Origin: a virus
Taxonomy: Duplodnaviria > Caudoviricetes
Virus record (IMG/VR): IMGVR_UViG_3300023256_000023
Location: 1-32,910 of that record
DNA length: 32,910 bases
Direction: 5' to 3' (one strand)
A program made the position numbers and the translations under genes. Positions within the stretch are counted from its first letter, which is position 1, and each line of letters starts with the position of its first letter. The notes under the pieces are model-generated. The model had not been told where the DNA came from, made no database searches, and worked only from the letters and a program-made list of their open reading frames with translations. Positions 1,286 to 9,105 of this stretch are shown here, piece by piece.

Positions 1286-1303
1286 ATGTTTAGGAGACTG
1301 ACA

Positions 1304-2296
1304 ATGGCACCATATAACAGCACGAGAGACGGACGCCCGAAGCTTGGTCGTAAGTACCATCTATCGGAAGAGAGTAAACTCGTCGATGATACGACACTAT
1401 ACAGAATTATCGCCATCAGGTCGTTTGGTGACATTACCAAAGGTGACAAAGGTGGGTTTATAGAAAAAGAATCCAATCTTTCACACAACGATAACGCATG
1501 GGTATACGATAACGCACGGGTATACGGCGACACACGGGTGTCCGGTAACGCACGGGTATACGGCGACGCTCAGGTATACGATAACGCACGGGTATCCGGC
1601 GACGCATGGGTGTTCGATAACGCATGGGTGTCCGGCGACGCACGGGTGTCCGGTAACGCACGGGTATACGGCGACGCACGGTTTTTCGGCGACGCATGGG
1701 TATACGATAACGCACGGGTGTTCGATAACGCACGGGTGTTCGATAACGCATGGGTGTCCGGTAACGCTCAGGTATACGGTAACGCACGGGTGTTCGATAA
1801 CACGTGTGTGTCCGATAACGCACGGGTGCTCGGTGATATGTCACCACACAATAATACGGGGGATGGAAGCACGAAGGACACAAACCCCAAAGACTCACTC
1901 GGCACCAAAAAGTGGAGGCAGTATTGCACAGTCCCAACAACTATAATATGGGAATTGGGTGTTGCAATGCTGGAGGGAGCGAGAAAATATGGGCGGCACA
2001 ACTATCGTAAAGCGGGTATACGGGCGTCGGTTTATGTAGATGCAGCGAAAGGCCATATAGACCAATGGTGGGAGGGGGAGGATATAGACTCAGACAGTGG
2101 CCTCAACCACCTGGTGAAAGCTGCCGCTTGTCTGGCTGTGTTGCGTGACGCACAGGTTAACGACATGTGTAAAGATGATCGTCCACCTAAGATGAAGCTC
2201 GACGGGCTTAGGGACAATCTTCAAAAAGCAGTTGAGAAGATCATAGAGAAATACCCCACCTGCAAACCCCCGTTTACAGAGGCTAATTGTGATTAG
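1304..2296 (+). CDS. Hexapeptide-repeat protein fused to a DUF5664-like dATP/dGTP diphosphohydrolase domain
   Basis: AGGAG SD, ATG at 1304. N-terminal LYRIIAIRSFGDITKGDKGGFIEKESNLSH is the typical cap of phage hexapeptide proteins, followed by ~19 repeats. C-terminal TNPKDSLG...AMLEGARKYGRHNYR...YVDAAKGHIDQWWEGEDIDSDSGLNHLVKAAACLAVL matches the DUF5664 pattern. Confidence 0.8.
   Translation: MAPYNSTRDGRPKLGRKYHLSEESKLVDDTTLYRIIAIRSFGDITKGDKGGFIEKESNLSHNDNAWVYDNARVYGDTRVSGNARVYGDAQVYDNARVSGDAWVFDNAWVSGDARVSGNARVYGDARFFGDAWVYDNARVFDNARVFDNAWVSGNAQVYGNARVFDNTCVSDNARVLGDMSPHNNTGDGSTKDTNPKDSLGTKKWRQYCTVPTTIIWELGVAMLEGARKYGRHNYRKAGIRASVYVDAAKGHIDQWWEGEDIDSDSGLNHLVKAAACLAVLRDAQVNDMCKDDRPPKMKLDGLRDNLQKAVEKIIEKYPTCKPPFTEANCD
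1490..1837 (+). repeat. Degenerate 18-bp tandem repeat array, copy 2 (~19 units)
   Basis: Same unit vocabulary as 7-300. Bases 1484-1648 match 1-165 except at two short blocks. Confidence 0.95.
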
Positions 2297-2435
2297 AACA
2301 TTGTGTTATATAATAATAATAGCAATGTTCCTCCTGATGGGCGTGTGTGACATGTGTACGGGAAAATGGAGAATAGGGCTGGCTGGAGTCCTTTTGGGTG
2401 TTGTTAATGCCCTGATCTATTGGAGGTCAAACTAA
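2289..2435 (+). CDS. Small two-helix membrane protein (48 aa), not in the ORF track
   Basis: GTG at 2289 after GAGG; MIRTLCYIIIIAMFLLMGVCDMCTGKWRIGLAGVLLGVVNALIYWRSN. Its TAA overlaps the next ATG (TAATG). Confidence 0.6.
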   Translation: MIRTLCYIIIIAMFLLMGVCDMCTGKWRIGLAGVLLGVVNALIYWRSN

Positions 2436-2965
2436 TGATAGCGTTTTGTGATATTGACGGGGTGCTCGCAGACTTCAATAAGCGTGCGTTCGAGGTACTT
2501 GGTTTGCATTTTGCCTACAATCACCTGGCGTTGCGTTCCTGGGACTGGCCTACATACTTTGGGCTTGATCTGTTAAAGGACGTCGACCCACTGTGTGATG
2601 AGGAATTTTGGGCAGGTATGGAGTGGATGCCTGACGGCAGGGAAATACTTGCCACCGTCGAAGCCACGTTCAATGACGTCTACCTGCTGACTTCGCCCAT
2701 GCCCAACAGTGGTGCCTGGACTGGTAAAATGCGATGGATCAAAGAACACATACCACATTATGCAAACCGGGTGATAATGACACGGGCACCCAAGCACCTT
2801 CTCGCCAGTCCAGACCGTGTGCTTATAGACGACAATGATGATAATGTTACGGGGTGGGTGTGTTCAGGCGGACAAGCTATCCTTGTTCCACGTCCCTGGA
2901 ACACGCTGAGTCACCTTAAAGACTATGCTCTGCCTATCGTTAAGACTCAGTTGGGGGCAATCTAA
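2435..2965 (+). CDS. 5'(3')-deoxyribonucleotidase, HAD/NT5C family
   Basis: HAD motif I CDIDGVLADF, then FWAGMEWMPDG, YLLTSP, GKMRWIKEH and VLIDD; GGAGG SD. Confidence 0.85.
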   Translation: MIAFCDIDGVLADFNKRAFEVLGLHFAYNHLALRSWDWPTYFGLDLLKDVDPLCDEEFWAGMEWMPDGREILATVEATFNDVYLLTSPMPNSGAWTGKMRWIKEHIPHYANRVIMTRAPKHLLASPDRVLIDDNDDNVTGWVCSGGQAILVPRPWNTLSHLKDYALPIVKTQLGAI

Positions 2966-3870
2966 TGAGGATCATCGACCACACAATAGAATTAGATAAA
3001 AAGAGCGGGCGTGTTGAGTTCTTCCTGTTCGGCGACACGCACATAGGCAAACGAAATTGTGCTGAGGGGCCCATACGTAAGCAGGTAGCAGAGGTTGTTC
3101 GCCGGGCGGAGAAACCAGGTAGAGTAATCCGCGTTCTGTTCGGCGGTGACATCAACGACTATGTAAAGCCGGGCGATGTGAAACGGTGGAATGTGAACGT
3201 ATTGGCCGACTGGATATACAAGGGTACGCCTGCTCAAATACGCAAGCGGCTAAACAATGTTGCCCCGGAACAACTGAAACGATCCCTCAGTATGCTTGAG
3301 CCCCTGAAACCATTCGCTATTGGTGGGCTGGAGGGCAATCATGAGTTCGCCATGATGCAGCATAATAACTTTGATATGCAAGCTCAGTTCTGTGACGCCA
3401 TGGGCATGGAAGACCTGACGGACGAAGCATTGATCCGCGTCAAGTTCAAGTACCGTACTACGACCCAGACTATGAAGATATACATGCAGCACGGTCATGG
3501 TGGCGGGCGAACAGCAGGAGCAGAACCCAATCACCTTGAACGACTACGATCTGAGTGGGAGGACGCTGACGTAGTGTTACGTGGGCACTCACACACTTTT
3601 GGAACCCTGCCACCGAAGCCTGTTATGTATTTGCCCAACCGTGGCAAACTACCGGCTGAGTTATTACAACGGTATCGCTATGCTGCGAATTGGGGATGCT
3701 GGCTGTATAGCCACCGGGTGGGACCCTCGACCTATGAGTCACGAGCAACTTATCCGGCCCGGCCTATGATGACAATAAAGGTAGTGGTGTGGCCGTTCCA
3801 CCGTACCGTGATAAACGGCAAGGAAGTTATGAAACCAAAGATAGAGTTACGGGAGTATGCTATATTATGA
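2965..3870 (+). CDS. Calcineurin-like metallophosphoesterase
   Basis: Motifs GDTHIG, GGDIND, GNHE, HGHG and GHSH in the canonical order. Confidence 0.85.
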   Translation: MRIIDHTIELDKKSGRVEFFLFGDTHIGKRNCAEGPIRKQVAEVVRRAEKPGRVIRVLFGGDINDYVKPGDVKRWNVNVLADWIYKGTPAQIRKRLNNVAPEQLKRSLSMLEPLKPFAIGGLEGNHEFAMMQHNNFDMQAQFCDAMGMEDLTDEALIRVKFKYRTTTQTMKIYMQHGHGGGRTAGAEPNHLERLRSEWEDADVVLRGHSHTFGTLPPKPVMYLPNRGKLPAELLQRYRYAANWGCWLYSHRVGPSTYESRATYPARPMMTIKVVVWPFHRTVINGKEVMKPKIELREYAIL

Positions 3871-4049: not shown

Positions 4050-4226
4050 ATGTCTGATTTCCCAGGAAAAGGCTGTTGGCAACGCCCACTATCAACAGGG
4101 CAGGAAGAATATAAGATAAGACAGCAATACGCACACGGTGAGATCACATTAGAAGAGTTCTACAGGCAGTACGCCGAACTGGAAAAGCAGGGCAAGATAA
4201 CACGCAATGGCAGGAGATTGGGATGA
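4050..4226 (+). CDS. Hypothetical protein (58 aa), not in the ORF track
   Basis: GAGGA SD; MSDFPGKGCWQRPLSTGQEEYKIRQQYAHGEITLEEFYRQYAELEKQGKITRNGRRLG. ATGA overlap with recG. Confidence 0.6.
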   Translation: MSDFPGKGCWQRPLSTGQEEYKIRQQYAHGEITLEEFYRQYAELEKQGKITRNGRRLG

Positions 4227-6223
4227 ACATAAGACTTCTACCAGGGGTAGGTCCGAAGCAACTGGCCGCGTTCAACAGCAAGGGTGTACACACAGTGCGT
4301 GACCTGCTGAATTTCTTTCCTCGTTCCTGGGTCATAGCACCGCCCATAGTATCTGCTGGCAGTCTTATCGAAGGTGATAGGGCGTCTGTAGCAGGCACAA
4401 TTAACAGCGTATGCTGTAATACACGCGGGCGTATACCCACGATCACGCTTAATCTGGTAGATAGCGAGGGACATACTATCAGGCTGAAATGGTTTAACCA
4501 AGCCTATCTTCGGCGGCAACTAAGAAACGGCAGTTGTGTTGTGGCCACCGGAAATGTGATACGATATAATGGAGAATTAGAGATAGTTAATCCCAGGTTT
4601 ATTATAGCTGACGGGAGCACAAATCTGTTGGGCCAATTCAATGGCGGAGTGTACCCAGCCACCGCCGACCTACCAAGCAAAACTACCAAGCGTATTATAC
4701 AAAGGGCACTCAAGGCTCATGCCAACGAGATAGTGGAGTTGGAGTATCTTGGCCCTACAACCAGGCACAGGCATACCCTCGCTGAAAGACCGTGGGCTTA
4801 CAACATGATACATAACCCCAGTAATGCACGGTGTTTACGATCAGCGAAGCGTAGGCTCAAGTTTGATGAACTGTTCTTTATGCAACTGGGTCTAATGCTA
4901 CGACAGAAGGACCGGATGGTGTCGGACGCCCCGCGTGTCAAGCCGGACAGTTGTGTAGGCGGGAACTTTCCGTTCGATCTGACGCAGTCACAGCAGACGT
5001 GCGTGTGCGAGATAGCAAGTGACATGGCCTCGGGCAGGCCGATGAATCGTCTGCTCCACGGTGACGTGGGGTCGGGCAAGACAGCGGTAGCCATAGAAGC
5101 TATGATGCTTGCAGTGTCGGCTGGTTATCAGGTAGCAGTTATGGCACCTACGCAGATACTTGCCGAGCAGCTTACCAGTAAAATTAGGGAGTTTACACCT
5201 GACTGGGTGCGGACTGGGCTACTGACGAGTGACATTAGCAGCACCGCCCAGGCTCATATCCTTAGTGGATGTGCTGATGGTGAGTGTAATATAGCAGTAG
5301 GCACTACCTCATTGCTAAGTGACAAGGTTGATTTTTACAACCCCGGCCTGGTGGTGATCGATGAACAGCATAAGTTCGGCGTTAATCAAAGGGCTAAACT
5401 TGGGGAAGACCAGAACGTACACCGCCTCGTGATGACAGCCACCCCTATCCCCCGGACCATAGCCTTGTCTGTGTTTGGTGATATGGATGTATCCACAATC
5501 TGGAAGAAACCAGTCGGGCGTGGAACAGTGGTGACGAAGGTAGTAGAGAAGAGTAAACTTGATAAAGCTATGGGCGTACTTGAACGTGCAGTCGTGGATG
5601 GGCGGCAGACATACGTGGTATGCCCCAGGATTGACGGCGACGATGGGGCTGAAAAAGTGTTTGAAGGACTGGCAGCAATAGGACATTCAGTAGGTATGGT
5701 CCACGGGAGGATGCAGCCAGCCCAGATTAACAGGATTATAAAAGCCTTTCGACAAGACACCGTGAGTATACTCGTCTCCACCACCATAATAGAGGTTGGT
5801 GTTGACATTCCCAACGCTTCACTGATGATTATAATGGGTGCTGACATGTTCGGCCTCGCACAGCTTCACCAGTTACGGGGCAGAATTGGCAGGGGATCAC
5901 GTACCTCTACTTGTCTGCTGGTAACTGGATCGTATGATGCTAAGACCAGGAAACGATTAGACGTTCTGGAGAAGTGTACGGACGGATTCAAGATAGCAGA
6001 GCACGATCTAAAGTTACGTGGGCCGGGCGATCTGTTCGACACTAAGCAGCATGGTCTGCCTAACTTCAAGCTGGCCAATATCGTAGATGACTTTGCCTTG
6101 ATGCAAGAGGCCAGGAAGTTCGCAGAACACTGTGTGTTTGGACAACACGGTGAAGTGACGTCGGATATGAGACAGGAAATGGAATACTTTTTAGGTGACG
6201 CCAGCCTGGGAGACGTAGGATGA
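4223..6223 (+). CDS. recG: ATP-dependent DNA helicase RecG
   Basis: N-terminal LPGVGPK...DLLNFFPR, wedge-domain WFNQAYL, RRLKFDELF, MNRLLHGDVGSGKT, MAPTQILAEQ, IDEQHKFGV, MTATPIPRT, TTIIEVGVDIPNA, GLAQLHQLRGRIGRG, and the TRG motif DGFKIAEHDLKLRGPGD. Confidence 0.95.
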   Translation: MNIRLLPGVGPKQLAAFNSKGVHTVRDLLNFFPRSWVIAPPIVSAGSLIEGDRASVAGTINSVCCNTRGRIPTITLNLVDSEGHTIRLKWFNQAYLRRQLRNGSCVVATGNVIRYNGELEIVNPRFIIADGSTNLLGQFNGGVYPATADLPSKTTKRIIQRALKAHANEIVELEYLGPTTRHRHTLAERPWAYNMIHNPSNARCLRSAKRRLKFDELFFMQLGLMLRQKDRMVSDAPRVKPDSCVGGNFPFDLTQSQQTCVCEIASDMASGRPMNRLLHGDVGSGKTAVAIEAMMLAVSAGYQVAVMAPTQILAEQLTSKIREFTPDWVRTGLLTSDISSTAQAHILSGCADGECNIAVGTTSLLSDKVDFYNPGLVVIDEQHKFGVNQRAKLGEDQNVHRLVMTATPIPRTIALSVFGDMDVSTIWKKPVGRGTVVTKVVEKSKLDKAMGVLERAVVDGRQTYVVCPRIDGDDGAEKVFEGLAAIGHSVGMVHGRMQPAQINRIIKAFRQDTVSILVSTTIIEVGVDIPNASLMIIMGADMFGLAQLHQLRGRIGRGSRTSTCLLVTGSYDAKTRKRLDVLEKCTDGFKIAEHDLKLRGPGDLFDTKQHGLPNFKLANIVDDFALMQEARKFAEHCVFGQHGEVTSDMRQEMEYFLGDASLGDVG

Positions 6224-9105
6224 GTGGAGACATTCTTCAACAAGCTGAGTTTCCAGAGGCAGTGTTGGTCCTCGACTTCGAGACCTACTTCGACGCTGAT
6301 TATACTCTCAAGAAGATGACCACTGTAGAGTATATCGCTGATCCTCGGTTCGAGTTCACTGGCCTTGGTATCCAGGTGTTCAATCACCCTATGGAAAAGA
6401 TGGGTCGTGTGTTTGTAGATGGACTCCGCGTGCCCAAGACCATAGCTAAACTCAAAGAGACTTTTGGAAGAGGACTTCATAACTGTACAGTGGTAGCAGC
6501 TAACGTCAAGTTCGACCTCCTGATCCTGGCCCATCATTTTGACCTCTACCCACCATATACGGTGGATGTACAGGACCTTGGCAGGTATTATGATTCACGT
6601 ATGAAACAGAGCATTGAGCACCTGGCTAAAGAGTTCAAACTATCTACGGCTAAGGGTGACACCAAACAGTTTAAAGGTCTGCACTGTCATGACATGAATG
6701 AGACACAGCGGCGTGCTCTGAAAGCATACTGTCTCGATGATATAAAGATAGAAGCTGACCTGTTCCACGCCCTGTTACCTATGGTTGACAACCCGAAATT
6801 TGAATTGAAGTTGGCAGCCCACACACTGAGACTCTACACCAAACCTACCCTGGAGTTCGACTATGAACTGGCAGGTCGGCTCAAAGAGAGTATGCAGTCA
6901 TTGCTGGATGACACCCTTCGGCCTACTGGCCTGGAGGTAGGTGACTTCAGGAGACCTACTGTTCTTGTGCCAGCACTGCAAGCTCTGCTGCCAGCGGGCG
7001 AAACAGTGCCGATGAAGAAGGGCAAGAAGGGCATGATACCTGCTATGGCCAAGGATGACGAGGGCCTGAAGCTGCTATTGAAACACAAGGACAAGGGGGT
7101 TAGGGAGTTTGCTGAGGCTAAGGTGGCTGCACAGTCGTGGCCCGGCCACATTAAACGGGTCAACAGTTTAACAGTGTCGGCTCAGAAGTCAGATGGTTTA
7201 GTGAGGGTCCCCCTAAAATACTATGGATGCCACACTGGAAGATGGTCAGGTGAGGAAAAAGTGAACCTCCAAAACTTAGGCGGCACGGGTCGTGGGTCGG
7301 CCATGCACAGACTGATCGGAGAAGTTCGCGGATGCCTCCGGGCACCAGAGGGTTATTCACTCGTGGCTGTAGACGCCGCACAGATTGAGGCCCGTGCTCT
7401 TGCTTGGATTGCAGGCCAGCTTGATCTCCTATATGGGTTTGCCAAGGGCGAGGATGTATACTCCTCCTTCGCTTCCCACCTGTTTGGCAAGCCGGTGTGG
7501 AAAGTTACAGAAGAGGACTATGAGAGCAGTCTTCATAACCCAGAGGAACTGAGGGGCATCAAAATACAGAGGGGCTTCGGAAAGGATGCGATTTTGGGCT
7601 GCGTAGCAGAGGGAACGTCCATCTTAACAGATTCAGGACACAAACCGATACAGGACATAACAGTCAATGACAGGGTGTGGGATGGGCATAGTTTTGTACA
7701 CCACCAGGGCGTCGTGCCAAAGGGAAAGAAAAAATGTATAAACATCAACGGAACATGGCTGACACCAGAACACGAAATCTTGACCTGGGACGGGTGGACT
7801 ACAGCAGCAGAACTAAGCACGCACAACCACAGCCAGGAATGGTTTATGGAGAACTTAAGGTGGTTGAGGTCCCAAAAGGCACCTGTGGGGGGATCAAGTC
7901 CGTCAAATGTAGTTGCTCCTGTGGTAGAACATCTACTCCGTCAAGAGACAATCTTGTCTCAGGAAAATCTACACGCTGTACTGTCTGTGCTGAAAGAGCA
8001 TCCGGCAAAACTCAGAGCTATAAAACACATGTGGGGAACCCATCAAGAGCACGCCTGCTTAACAGGATTTGTGCTATCATTAGCCGATGTGAGACCAGAC
8101 CTCTTGAGAGATATGGTAAAAGAGGTATTAGAGTCTGGCCCAAATGGGTCAATGATCGAGTCGCTTTTATTGAGTATCTGGCAACGCTACCTGGATACGA
8201 CAATCCAGAACTTGAAATTGATCGGACCAATAATGACGGGGGGTATGAACCAGGAAATATCAGGTTTGCTACACGACGGGTCAATAGGCTCAATACTTGC
8301 CGGAGAAACCCCAGGATCGGGGAACAGATCAAATGTGCGTGGTGCGGGGCAATGTTCACGAGAAAAACATCAATTCAAAAGTTCTGTGGCAAACACTGCT
8401 CAGGCTGTGCTTCCCACATACGACATCCTGAACGCAGGCCGGTGGCATAGGTTTCAGACAGACGGCTTGATGTGTAGCAACTGCGGATACGGGATGGGGT
8501 CCGATAAGTTCTTCGACCGATGCTATACCAACGACGCACTGCGGCCCATGTTTGACTCAGGCCAGTACGACAAGGTCTTTATTGAGCAGTTGGTCAAGAC
8601 ATACCGTAGGAAATATGATCGCATCCCCGCGTTCTGGAAACAAGTAGAAAAGCTGTTTCGCTGGCCAATAAAATATCCAGGACAGTCCACGAGTTATGAG
8701 GTAGAAGGTAGAGAGTTACTCAAGTTTAATATGGTGGGCTCAGATTTGCAGATGACCCTGCCATCAGGCCGCGTTATGTACTACCGACACGCTTCAGTCA
8801 ACGCTGATGGTGAGATAAAATACAAGGGCGGCCCGAAGTGGTGTTATCTGTGGGGTGGGTCGATCACTGAGAACCTTATCCAGGCCCTATGCCGTGATCT
8901 CTTTGGTGGGTGGCTCTTAGAGATTGAACGCAGGGGTCATAAGGTAGTCCACCACTGCCATGATGAAACAATAACGTGTGTCCCAGACCACAGAGCAGAA
9001 GCAGTCATGGCAGACATGATTGACGTGATGACCCACGGACCCGAATGGTCTGAAGGTCTTCCATTTGCTACAGATGAGTTTATTTCAAAGGCGTATAAGA
9101 AATGA
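6220..9105 (+). CDS. Phage DNA polymerase, family A (3'-5' exonuclease + polymerase), intein-containing precursor
   Basis: ExoI LVLDFETYF, ExoIII YCLDD, HTGRWSG, motif A VDAAQIEAR, motif B RGFGKDAILG|CGYGMG split by the intein, TENLIQA, motif C HDE. About 667 aa after splicing. Confidence 0.93.
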   Translation: MSGDILQQAEFPEAVLVLDFETYFDADYTLKKMTTVEYIADPRFEFTGLGIQVFNHPMEKMGRVFVDGLRVPKTIAKLKETFGRGLHNCTVVAANVKFDLLILAHHFDLYPPYTVDVQDLGRYYDSRMKQSIEHLAKEFKLSTAKGDTKQFKGLHCHDMNETQRRALKAYCLDDIKIEADLFHALLPMVDNPKFELKLAAHTLRLYTKPTLEFDYELAGRLKESMQSLLDDTLRPTGLEVGDFRRPTVLVPALQALLPAGETVPMKKGKKGMIPAMAKDDEGLKLLLKHKDKGVREFAEAKVAAQSWPGHIKRVNSLTVSAQKSDGLVRVPLKYYGCHTGRWSGEEKVNLQNLGGTGRGSAMHRLIGEVRGCLRAPEGYSLVAVDAAQIEARALAWIAGQLDLLYGFAKGEDVYSSFASHLFGKPVWKVTEEDYESSLHNPEELRGIKIQRGFGKDAILGCVAEGTSILTDSGHKPIQDITVNDRVWDGHSFVHHQGVVPKGKKKCININGTWLTPEHEILTWDGWTTAAELSTHNHSQEWFMENLRWLRSQKAPVGGSSPSNVVAPVVEHLLRQETILSQENLHAVLSVLKEHPAKLRAIKHMWGTHQEHACLTGFVLSLADVRPDLLRDMVKEVLESGPNGSMIESLLLSIWQRYLDTTIQNLKLIGPIMTGGMNQEISGLLHDGSIGSILAGETPGSGNRSNVRGAGQCSREKHQFKSSVANTAQAVLPTYDILNAGRWHRFQTDGLMCSNCGYGMGSDKFFDRCYTNDALRPMFDSGQYDKVFIEQLVKTYRRKYDRIPAFWKQVEKLFRWPIKYPGQSTSYEVEGRELLKFNMVGSDLQMTLPSGRVMYYRHASVNADGEIKYKGGPKWCYLWGGSITENLIQALCRDLFGGWLLEIERRGHKVVHHCHDETITCVPDHRAEAVMADMIDVMTHGPEWSEGLPFATDEFISKAYKK
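7600..8481 (+). mobile_element. Intein (294 aa) inserted in PolA motif B
   Basis: Starts at C1 (CVAEGTSILTDSGHKPIQDI, block A). Block B WLTPEHEILT (TxxH), block F PTYDILNAG..HRF, ends LMCSN followed by C+1. Removal restores KDAILG-CGYGMG. Confidence 0.92.
7734..8450 (+). CDS. HNH-type homing endonuclease encoded in the -1 frame inside the intein (start uncertain: 7734, 7755, 7794 GTG or 7839)
   Basis: YGELKVV..KCSCSCG...NLVSGKSTRCTVC, then RC....YGKRGIRVWPKW...F..LEIDRTNNDGGYEPGNIRFATRRVNRLN, which is the phage HNH pattern IDRIDNxGxYxPxNxRWAT. C-terminal CAWCG...KFCGKHC Zn finger. Confidence 0.85.
   Translation: MYKHQRNMADTRTRNLDLGRVDYSSRTKHAQPQPGMVYGELKVVEVPKGTCGGIKSVKCSCSCGRTSTPSRDNLVSGKSTRCTVCAERASGKTQSYKTHVGNPSRARLLNRICAIISRCETRPLERYGKRGIRVWPKWVNDRVAFIEYLATLPGYDNPELEIDRTNNDGGYEPGNIRFATRRVNRLNTCRRNPRIGEQIKCAWCGAMFTRKTSIQKFCGKHCSGCASHIRHPERRPVA

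Follow-up and report, generated by a model that had tools for sequence, protein, structure and literature searches.

A phage DNA polymerase intein with a nuclease-like gene, likely separately translated, in its -1 frame

Inteins whose endonuclease is encoded out of frame have been described in two recent preprints, in which the layout is called rare (Gosselin 2025; Phillips 2026). In these reports, actinophage inteins carry an endonuclease VII-like gene that occupies frame 3, and also antisense endonucleases, with invasion by free-standing endonucleases as the proposed origin (Gosselin, Arsenault and Gogarten, bioRxiv 10.1101/2025.01.02.630785), and a cyanobacterial dnaX intein contains an out-of-frame LAGLIDADG gene with Shine-Dalgarno motifs and frame-dependent selection (Phillips, DeSimone and Gogarten, bioRxiv 10.64898/2026.09.14.751524). 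Related arrangements are the ShiLan domain, an HNH inserted out of frame into a methylase of mycobacteriophages (Arsenault et al. 2025, PMC11855218), and fractured genes, in which split inteins flank a free-standing endonuclease (Dassa et al. 2009, PMC2677866). The present analysis concerns an insert in the family A DNA polymerase gene of a viral contig (IMG/VR record IMGVR_UViG_3300023256_000023; the whole stretch of 32,910 bases is called the window below). An earlier, sequence-only reading of this DNA knew of no description of the insert's architecture, but such descriptions exist. Both the out-of-frame-endonuclease layout and its origin model have been published, and nothing is therefore overturned here. 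What this locus adds is a large polymerase-intein family, for which no publication was found and which is present in culturable phages, together with an unexplained conserved block within the overlap.

The insert codes twice, and we consider it likely that frame 0, the polymerase frame, contains a self-splicing intein and that the conserved nuclease-like gene in the -1 frame is separately translated and drives homing of the whole insert (Table 1). The polymerase precursor would splice via the standard Cys/Asn/Cys route and discard the spacer, the polymerase mRNA would have an internal initiation site for ribosomes at 7734, and the nuclease, using a Tyr-based active site like that of PacI, would cut or nick polymerase alleles that lack the insert, close to the insertion site, after which repair would copy the insert in. 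A free-standing nuclease gene may have entered an intein and later have taken its start and stop signals from intein codons.

Regarding frame 0, the sequence-only reading held that the polymerase frame passes without a stop through a 294-amino-acid intein with intact splicing blocks, and this was found to be so, with Cys1, TPEH, block F and a terminal Ser-Asn before Cys all present in an open reading frame (ORF) free of stops over its whole length. The insertion point, ...KDAILG|CGYGMG, lies in what we take to be the motif B region of the polymerase. TPEH occupies intein residues 55-58 and block F approximately residues 273-286, followed by N294 and the +1 Cys; T55, H58 and N294 are invariant in all 28 inteins compared. 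Cys1, the block B TxxH, the terminal Asn and the +1 Cys are the sequence features of a class 1 intein. No intein profile matched in Pfam or NCBIfam (in Pfam, 0 of the 28 family members), so the intein call rests on motifs, modelled fold and empty alleles. An AlphaFold2 model built from the 28-row alignment reached a predicted local distance difference test score (pLDDT) above 84 for residues 1-70 and of 90-94 for residues 271-294, with a low-confidence middle, and every listed Foldseek match of this model was a Hint-family chain (probability up to 1.0, best E 2.8e-3). The modelled ends of the intein thus likely have the Hint fold, and the motifs suggest that the polymerase precursor likely splices itself to release the intein. 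The middle, which had been expected to hold no in-frame domain, gave no PHROG match and nothing above cutoff in Pfam, and its model consists of low-confidence helices with pLDDT 36-63. Of the search results that the earlier reading had foreseen, Hint ends (by model), an HNH PHROG in the -1 frame and a spacer without a domain were therefore obtained, and a Pfam or NCBIfam intein match was not. A canonical full intein has its endonuclease in its own frame; here the nuclease lies in the -1 frame, as it does at all 45 loci described below.

As the sequence-only reading had noted, no stop interrupts the -1 frame between 7692 and 8450, a span of 252 codons from one stop to the next. The likely start is the ATG at 7734 rather than 7692, and from this ATG 238 amino acids are counted. 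The tail of this ORF overlaps intein block F, as had been seen; its head overlaps block B as well, which had been missed. The encoded protein matches phrog_374 (HNH) at E 7.8e-29 and four more PHROG HNH families at E<1e-4. Stand-alone relatives with approximately 26-36% identity, annotated as HNH or hypothetical, occur in many phages (best 60 of 769 records), and for this reason a free-standing origin of the nested gene is plausible. The earlier label "HNH" holds at the superfamily level, as the PHROG matches indicate, and fails for canonical HNH membership, judging from the putative active site, in which the general-base His of D-H is absent and D-R...Y is found. A Cys cluster at the C-terminus, which adds approximately 41 codons to both frames, is optional, being missing in 13 of 15 close loci, where the inteins have 253 amino acids.

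Comparison of 137 homologous polymerases at the insertion site revealed 107 empty alleles and 28 with an insert of 253-298 amino acids, 2 being unplaced. Relative to the empty alleles, the insertion is clean and in frame, as is expected of a class 1 intein, and no mini-intein occupies the window's site among the 28 intein-bearing close relatives. Of the 107 empty alleles, 83 have Cys and 5 have Ser as the residue after the site; the other 19, with Ala, Asn, Asp or Arg there, could not support splicing. On a tree of 129 exteins, which omits the 2 unplaced homologs and 6 rows that bear the intein but are short, the 22 intein carriers need 20 changes, compared with a mean of 20.5 for shuffled labels. 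Intein-bearing and empty alleles are therefore interspersed, the pattern expected of homing; the tree comes from FastTree only, and its carriers were partly gathered with an intein query. In addition, the DNA of Sodalis phage SO-1 is 80-88% identical to that of four Guernseyvirinae over the intein and 63-69% identical in the flanks, in an ungapped comparison in which indels could lower flank identity. Mobility as a unit, already proposed in the sequence-only reading, agrees with the interspersed alleles and with the SO-1 comparison, and the insert is likely mobile as a unit and spread by homing, as far as such comparisons can indicate.

The two qualifications just given, on the tree and on the ungapped flanks, weigh against the dual-coding, homing interpretation, as do the following observations. 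The penultimate intein residue is Ser, where class 1 inteins usually, not universally, have His; across the close clade it is Ser, Ala or Gly, and His is found in distant relatives. Arg stands at the position of the HNH general-base His, D163-R164 being present in all aligned homologs that cover the site. Structural likeness is weak: in the VIA comparison, nuclease residues 90-191 matched PacI with Z 4.0 at rank 22 and Hpy99I with Z 3.9, residues 25-80 mainly matched SH3/Tudor-like barrels, and Foldseek with the nuclease model returned nothing at E<=0.001. One close locus (L056/L073) has a stop four codons past the ATG and either uses a later GTG or is decaying, and the L097 nuclease has an internal stop.

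These features bear most directly on the possibility that the -1 protein is real and is not an active homing nuclease here, being dead, DNA-binding only, or engaged in cutting competing phage genomes elsewhere, with the insert spread by recombination or linkage. The replacement of the catalytic His by Arg, the weak structural matches and the unassigned target all speak for it. Against it, D163, R164, Y171 and N175 are invariant or nearly so, and the scattered copies of the insert are exact units at a single site. Moreover, PacI-type His-Me finger nucleases likewise carry D-R...Y where HNH enzymes carry D-H, and in PacI, Tyr takes over the role of the catalytic His (PMC5714182, group 20; PMC3384342). 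Of the marks of this PacI-like type, a beta-beta-alpha-metal fold with conserved Tyr and Asn, the nested protein has the conserved residues, and it has strong PHROG HNH matches, but its matches to solved structures are weak. The best PDB sequence match of the nested nuclease is the D-R...Y stretch of PacI, at a weak E of 0.19; PacI is a restriction enzyme, and the likeness between the two is slight. We regard an inactive or otherwise occupied protein as improbable, and nuclease activity with a PacI-like, Tyr-based site as plausible.

With respect to expression, a separate nuclease gene had been predicted, and all 15 close loci were found to have both a conserved start and a Shine-Dalgarno-like site. 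Translation would begin at -1 codon 45, with ATG in 14 loci and GTG in 1. The frame-0 residue that supplies the A of this start codon varies among K, A, Q, E, R, G and S, and A makes up only 35% of the third positions near the nuclease start. The duplex of the upstream site with the 16S tail ranges from -3.9 to -11.6 kcal/mol, two alternative starts being mostly weaker, and the nuclease stop lies in or at intein block F/G at all 15 loci. Distant loci of the -1 type start at codon 31 in 8 of 9 cases, and +1 loci (in which a related nuclease occupies the +1 frame) at codon 68 in 7 of 12, each with a Shine-Dalgarno-like site. Neither a sigma-70-type promoter on the plus strand nor a terminator was found in 7400-8600, and no conserved RNA hairpin covers the nuclease start (consensus -2.8 kcal/mol). 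Translation of the nested gene by separate initiation fits these sequence data best.

The nuclease could instead be made by -1 ribosomal frameshifting, as a fusion to the N-terminal half of the polymerase. An in-phase G_GGA_AAG heptamer at 7722-7728, together with the opening of the -1 frame from 7692, would allow this; in phage lambda, G_GGA_AAG serves as a slippery site. Of the 15 close loci, however, only 5 have a slippery-type heptamer at codons 42-43, the -1 frame upstream of the start is closed by a stop at codon 42 in three of them and at codon 40 in one, and the ATG three codons on is kept in 14 although the frame-0 residue varies. The conserved ATG and the embedded Shine-Dalgarno-like site favour separate initiation, and frameshifting appears very improbable.

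Selection on the two frames was compared over the 15 close loci, or 14 wherever one near-duplicate was dropped. Identity at the first, second and third frame-0 codon positions was 0.64/0.71/0.33 in the N-extein and 0.66/0.75/0.40 in intein codons 1-44. In block B it was 0.78/0.78/0.63, all three positions being conserved, and in the spacer 0.85/0.62/0.75, where the most variable position is the nuclease wobble. Protein identity in the spacer is 0.73 for the -1 frame, 0.55 for frame 0 and 0.51 for the third frame; the nuclease frame thus holds most of the amino-acid conservation there. Among 2205 spacer codons, frame 0 and the -1 frame contain no stop and the third frame contains 296, in line with the earlier expectation that both frames stay open across homologs. 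When the window's nuclease was re-encoded with extein codon usage, a mean of 8.8 polymerase-frame stops arose and none of 2000 simulations was stop-free; the same procedure over the 15 close loci gave means of 5.6-9.2 stops and 1 stop-free outcome in 30,000. Nuclease-silent changes that make a polymerase-frame stop were seen in 0 of 1756 pair-site opportunities versus 250 of 1072 in a non-coding control, counts that are pairwise and whose pairs are not independent. Nuclease codons of the form xTA before A or G, and xTG before A, do not occur at all. Changes silent in both frames are approximately twice as frequent as those silent in the nuclease only, a class that rests on very few sites. These patterns indicate that both frames are under selection and that the polymerase frame has been purged of stops, as the sequence-only reading had supposed.

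Such purging would be needless if the insert were a self-splicing RNA intron carrying an HNH gene, as the GenBank annotation of SO-1 gp38/gp39 ("type I self-splicing intron") has it. Phage polymerase introns with HNH genes are reported to exist (PMC3428280). Nevertheless, no Rfam intron family was detected at E<=5 in 7300-8800 and a group I core is absent from the hits, the insert is in frame, runs from an initial Cys to an Asn that is followed by Cys, and has a modelled Hint fold, and RefSeq calls the homologous insert of phage Ent3 an intein. An intron is therefore highly improbable. That assembly frameshifts conceal an ordinary in-frame HNH intein is practically out of the question: the window is a single assembled contig compared with other contigs and not with raw reads, but a second contig of 44.7 kb differs at 1 of 5714 bases, contigs from four sequencing runs have no indel (for the three runs without a possible-source mark, the contigs extend over most of the intein, and none spans the whole stretch), and the -1 relation recurs at 45 of 45 loci and in cultured phages.

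The dual-coding layout was followed through the family. Identical copies of the 961-amino-acid polymerase are encoded by 7 contigs, and four of the 8 members of its cluster are full-length. The stretch is present in 20 sequencing runs, which carry the label salt lake metagenome; no RNA run was listed among those containing it, and no empty-allele joint was found in the contigs of the four runs. A query with the frame-0 intein found 24 other proteins, and nuclease alignment scans found 19 metagenome and 26 viral loci, partly redundant, one of them on the window's own contig. At each of the 45, a host ORF without stops has the nuclease in its -1 frame, and the third frame contains 4-35 stops; a pattern search recovered an intein-type end in 43, and the nuclease match was stop-free in 42. 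A single-sequence nuclease query of viral contigs and a close-clade pattern search of GTDB genomes gave no locus. Polymerase homologs of 733-970 amino acids (P0116, P0128, P0146 and P0117) are empty at this site and may hold inserts elsewhere.

Of 50,697 phage records in GenBank, 190 gave an intein match at E<=0.001, and 143 of these are from Salmonella phages. The nested nuclease was present in 10 of 11 records inspected, and the remaining one is a 140-amino-acid mini-intein. Seven carry the nuclease in the -1 frame (SO-1, EBPR siphovirus 2, EnJE1, MR14, VT223, Ent3 and fPoEco01) and three carry a related nuclease in the +1 frame (APSE-1, Caulobacter GB2A and Javan255). The best-scoring -1 nucleases are approximately 39-43% identical to that of the window, and that of APSE-1 is 27% identical. 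The prediction that gene callers would miss the nested ORF is right for most records, which annotate the polymerase only, and wrong for SO-1, in which the nested coding sequence gp39 is annotated and labelled intron, and for APSE-1, in which part of it is annotated as P46. As the nested gene is mostly unannotated, such inteins would be misfiled as endonuclease-less.

A second polymerase intein site (e.g. GGKL|CEN) with a +1 frame nuclease was found at eight loci (L012, L013, L015, L018, L025, L027, L048 and L049), at approximately position 2501 of these loci, and APSE-1 belongs to this group. L038 has one polymerase with two inteins of the family, from 2501 onward, at both known sites. L040-L042 (2501-3340) have inteins in a host gene other than the polymerase, which by eye resembles a terminase, and there the -1 frame contains a different HNH-like ORF that is rich in Cys. 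In the wider family, mini-inteins of 135-158 amino acids do occur at the window's insertion site, and short inteins there are found in L029, L019 and L026 (approximately 2501/2143). That of L029 keeps an off-frame remnant of the nuclease active-site region, which implies that some short inteins are deletion products. The sequence-only reading proposed that a free-standing HNH gene invaded a mini-intein. A free-standing origin is plausible in view of the stand-alone relatives, and the direction from mini-intein to full intein is not borne out by the L029 remnant.

A near-invariant block of DNA within the overlap stands out. At fourfold sites of the nuclease, with stop-prone codons excluded, identity over the spacer is 0.61 (column bootstrap 0.54-0.70), compared with 0.33 (0.29-0.36) in the single-coded intein and 0.26 in the extein, and 6 of 21 fourfold columns are invariant versus 0 of 15 control columns. 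Identity is higher still in the block, whose limits were picked after the data had been seen. No compensatory RNA pairs were found in it, and the frame-0 residues that the close clade conserves do not recur at 24 distant loci. Amino-acid constraint from a new frame-0 helix is a possible explanation; the block may also be a DNA or RNA element, or a younger segment. A broader proposal, which we think somewhat unlikely, is that the spacer is a de novo selected polypeptide (with a helix at approximately frame-0 residues 121-138) needed by the intein, that nuclease and intein are locked in both frames, and that nuclease start signals were independently recruited from intein codons in at least three lineages (codon 45 here, 31 in Jerseyvirus-like phages and 68 in most of the +1 group). 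Expression of the hidden genes is directly testable, as the family is present in cultured phages.

Table 1. Positions of the polymerase gene, the intein and the predicted nested gene in the window
Feature	Position	Strand	Basis or remark
Family A DNA polymerase gene, 961 amino acids including intein	6220..9105	+	Pfam DNA_pol_A, 3'-5' exonuclease
Intein, 294 amino acids, frame 0	7600..8481 (882 nucleotides)	+	Cys1, TPEH, block F, terminal Ser-Asn then Cys
Shine-Dalgarno-like site for nested gene	7720..7725	+	8 nucleotides before ATG; intein codons Lys-Gly
His-Me (HNH-type) endonuclease-like gene, -1 frame, 238 amino acids	7734..8450	+	PHROG HNH matches, conserved ATG
Intein block B TPEH, dual-coded with nuclease N-terminus	7762..7773	+	T55/H58 invariant in 28/28 inteins
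Frame-0 spacer (nuclease DNA in polymerase frame)	7825..8400	+	Stop-free, without known domain
Near-invariant DNA block inside overlap	7963..8016	+	Nuclease fourfold-site identity 0.86 vs 0.54 in rest of spacer
Predicted active-site motif D163-R164...Y171...N175...N184/N187	8220..8294	+	(Nearly) invariant among aligned homologs
Optional C-terminal Cys cluster CxxC...CxxxCxxC of nuclease	8334..8408	+	Window and L056
Intein blocks F and G plus +1 Cys	8416..8484	+	Nuclease stop 8448-8450 inside block F

The window carries phage-type genes according to ORF calls, Pfam and PHROG, and phrog_17 matches both polymerase exteins. The polymerase start is overlapped by a full-length RecG helicase gene (4223-6223, plus strand; wedge, DEAD, helicase C and domain 3 in Pfam), which is apparently unusual for a phage of such size. 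Further upstream on the same strand, a nucleotide-pool cluster at 1286-3870 contains, by Pfam, a YdcK beta-solenoid fused to dATP/dGTP diphosphohydrolase, an NT5C nucleotidase and a metallophosphoesterase, and is possibly linked to modified bases. The polymerase itself showed a very weak match to DpoZ, far under the cutoff.

Collectively, the out-of-frame nuclease layout is the normal state in a large family of phage polymerase inteins, and the locus exemplifies how catalytic motifs of an intein can also contain the start and stop signals of a second gene. The family also offers a cultured-phage model for two points left by the published studies, namely translation of the hidden gene and homing. 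No paper on the nested nuclease in these polymerase inteins was found in a search that covered few subscription papers and no preprint supplements. The window shows the features by which out-of-frame-endonuclease inteins are recognized: a stop-free intein frame, an ORF for the nuclease that uses a different frame of that strand, purifying selection on the nuclease frame and a patchy distribution over the host-gene tree.

Among described systems, the actinophage inteins of Gosselin et al. have in common with the window a read-through intein, a same-strand nuclease in frame 3 (equivalent to -1), an unstructured in-frame middle, the invasion model and a patchy distribution; their nucleases are endonuclease VII-like, whereas the window has a D-R...Y His-Me nuclease in a family A polymerase host. 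The dnaX intein similarly keeps splicing and homing in separate overlapping frames, with purifying selection on the nuclease frame and a putative upstream Shine-Dalgarno motif, and it also has empty, mini and full alleles and a secondary-invasion model, as here. It differs in its LAGLIDADG nuclease and chromosomal gene, and the in-frame overlap is reported to be largely unconstrained there, whereas the nuclease wobble in the window is more conserved than single-coded intein wobble. ShiLan resembles the window in having a third-frame HNH gene within a stop-free host frame and apparent homing, but it involves no intein or splicing and a non-essential host gene, and no ribosome-binding site was reported to be found there. 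In the split inteins of Dassa et al., a free-standing endonuclease gene likewise lies within the intein and overlaps intein coding sequence at its 3' end; the host gene there is divided into two parts that depend on trans-splicing, whereas the host frame of the window reads through. In APSE-1, Caulobacter GB2A and Javan255, the nested nuclease is in the +1 frame, unlike that of the window, and in APSE-1 and GB2A the insertion site differs as well. The Jerseyvirus and Kagunavirus phages, SO-1, EBPR siphovirus 2 and Pseudomonas phage MR14 have a homologous polymerase intein with a nested -1 nuclease, as the window does.

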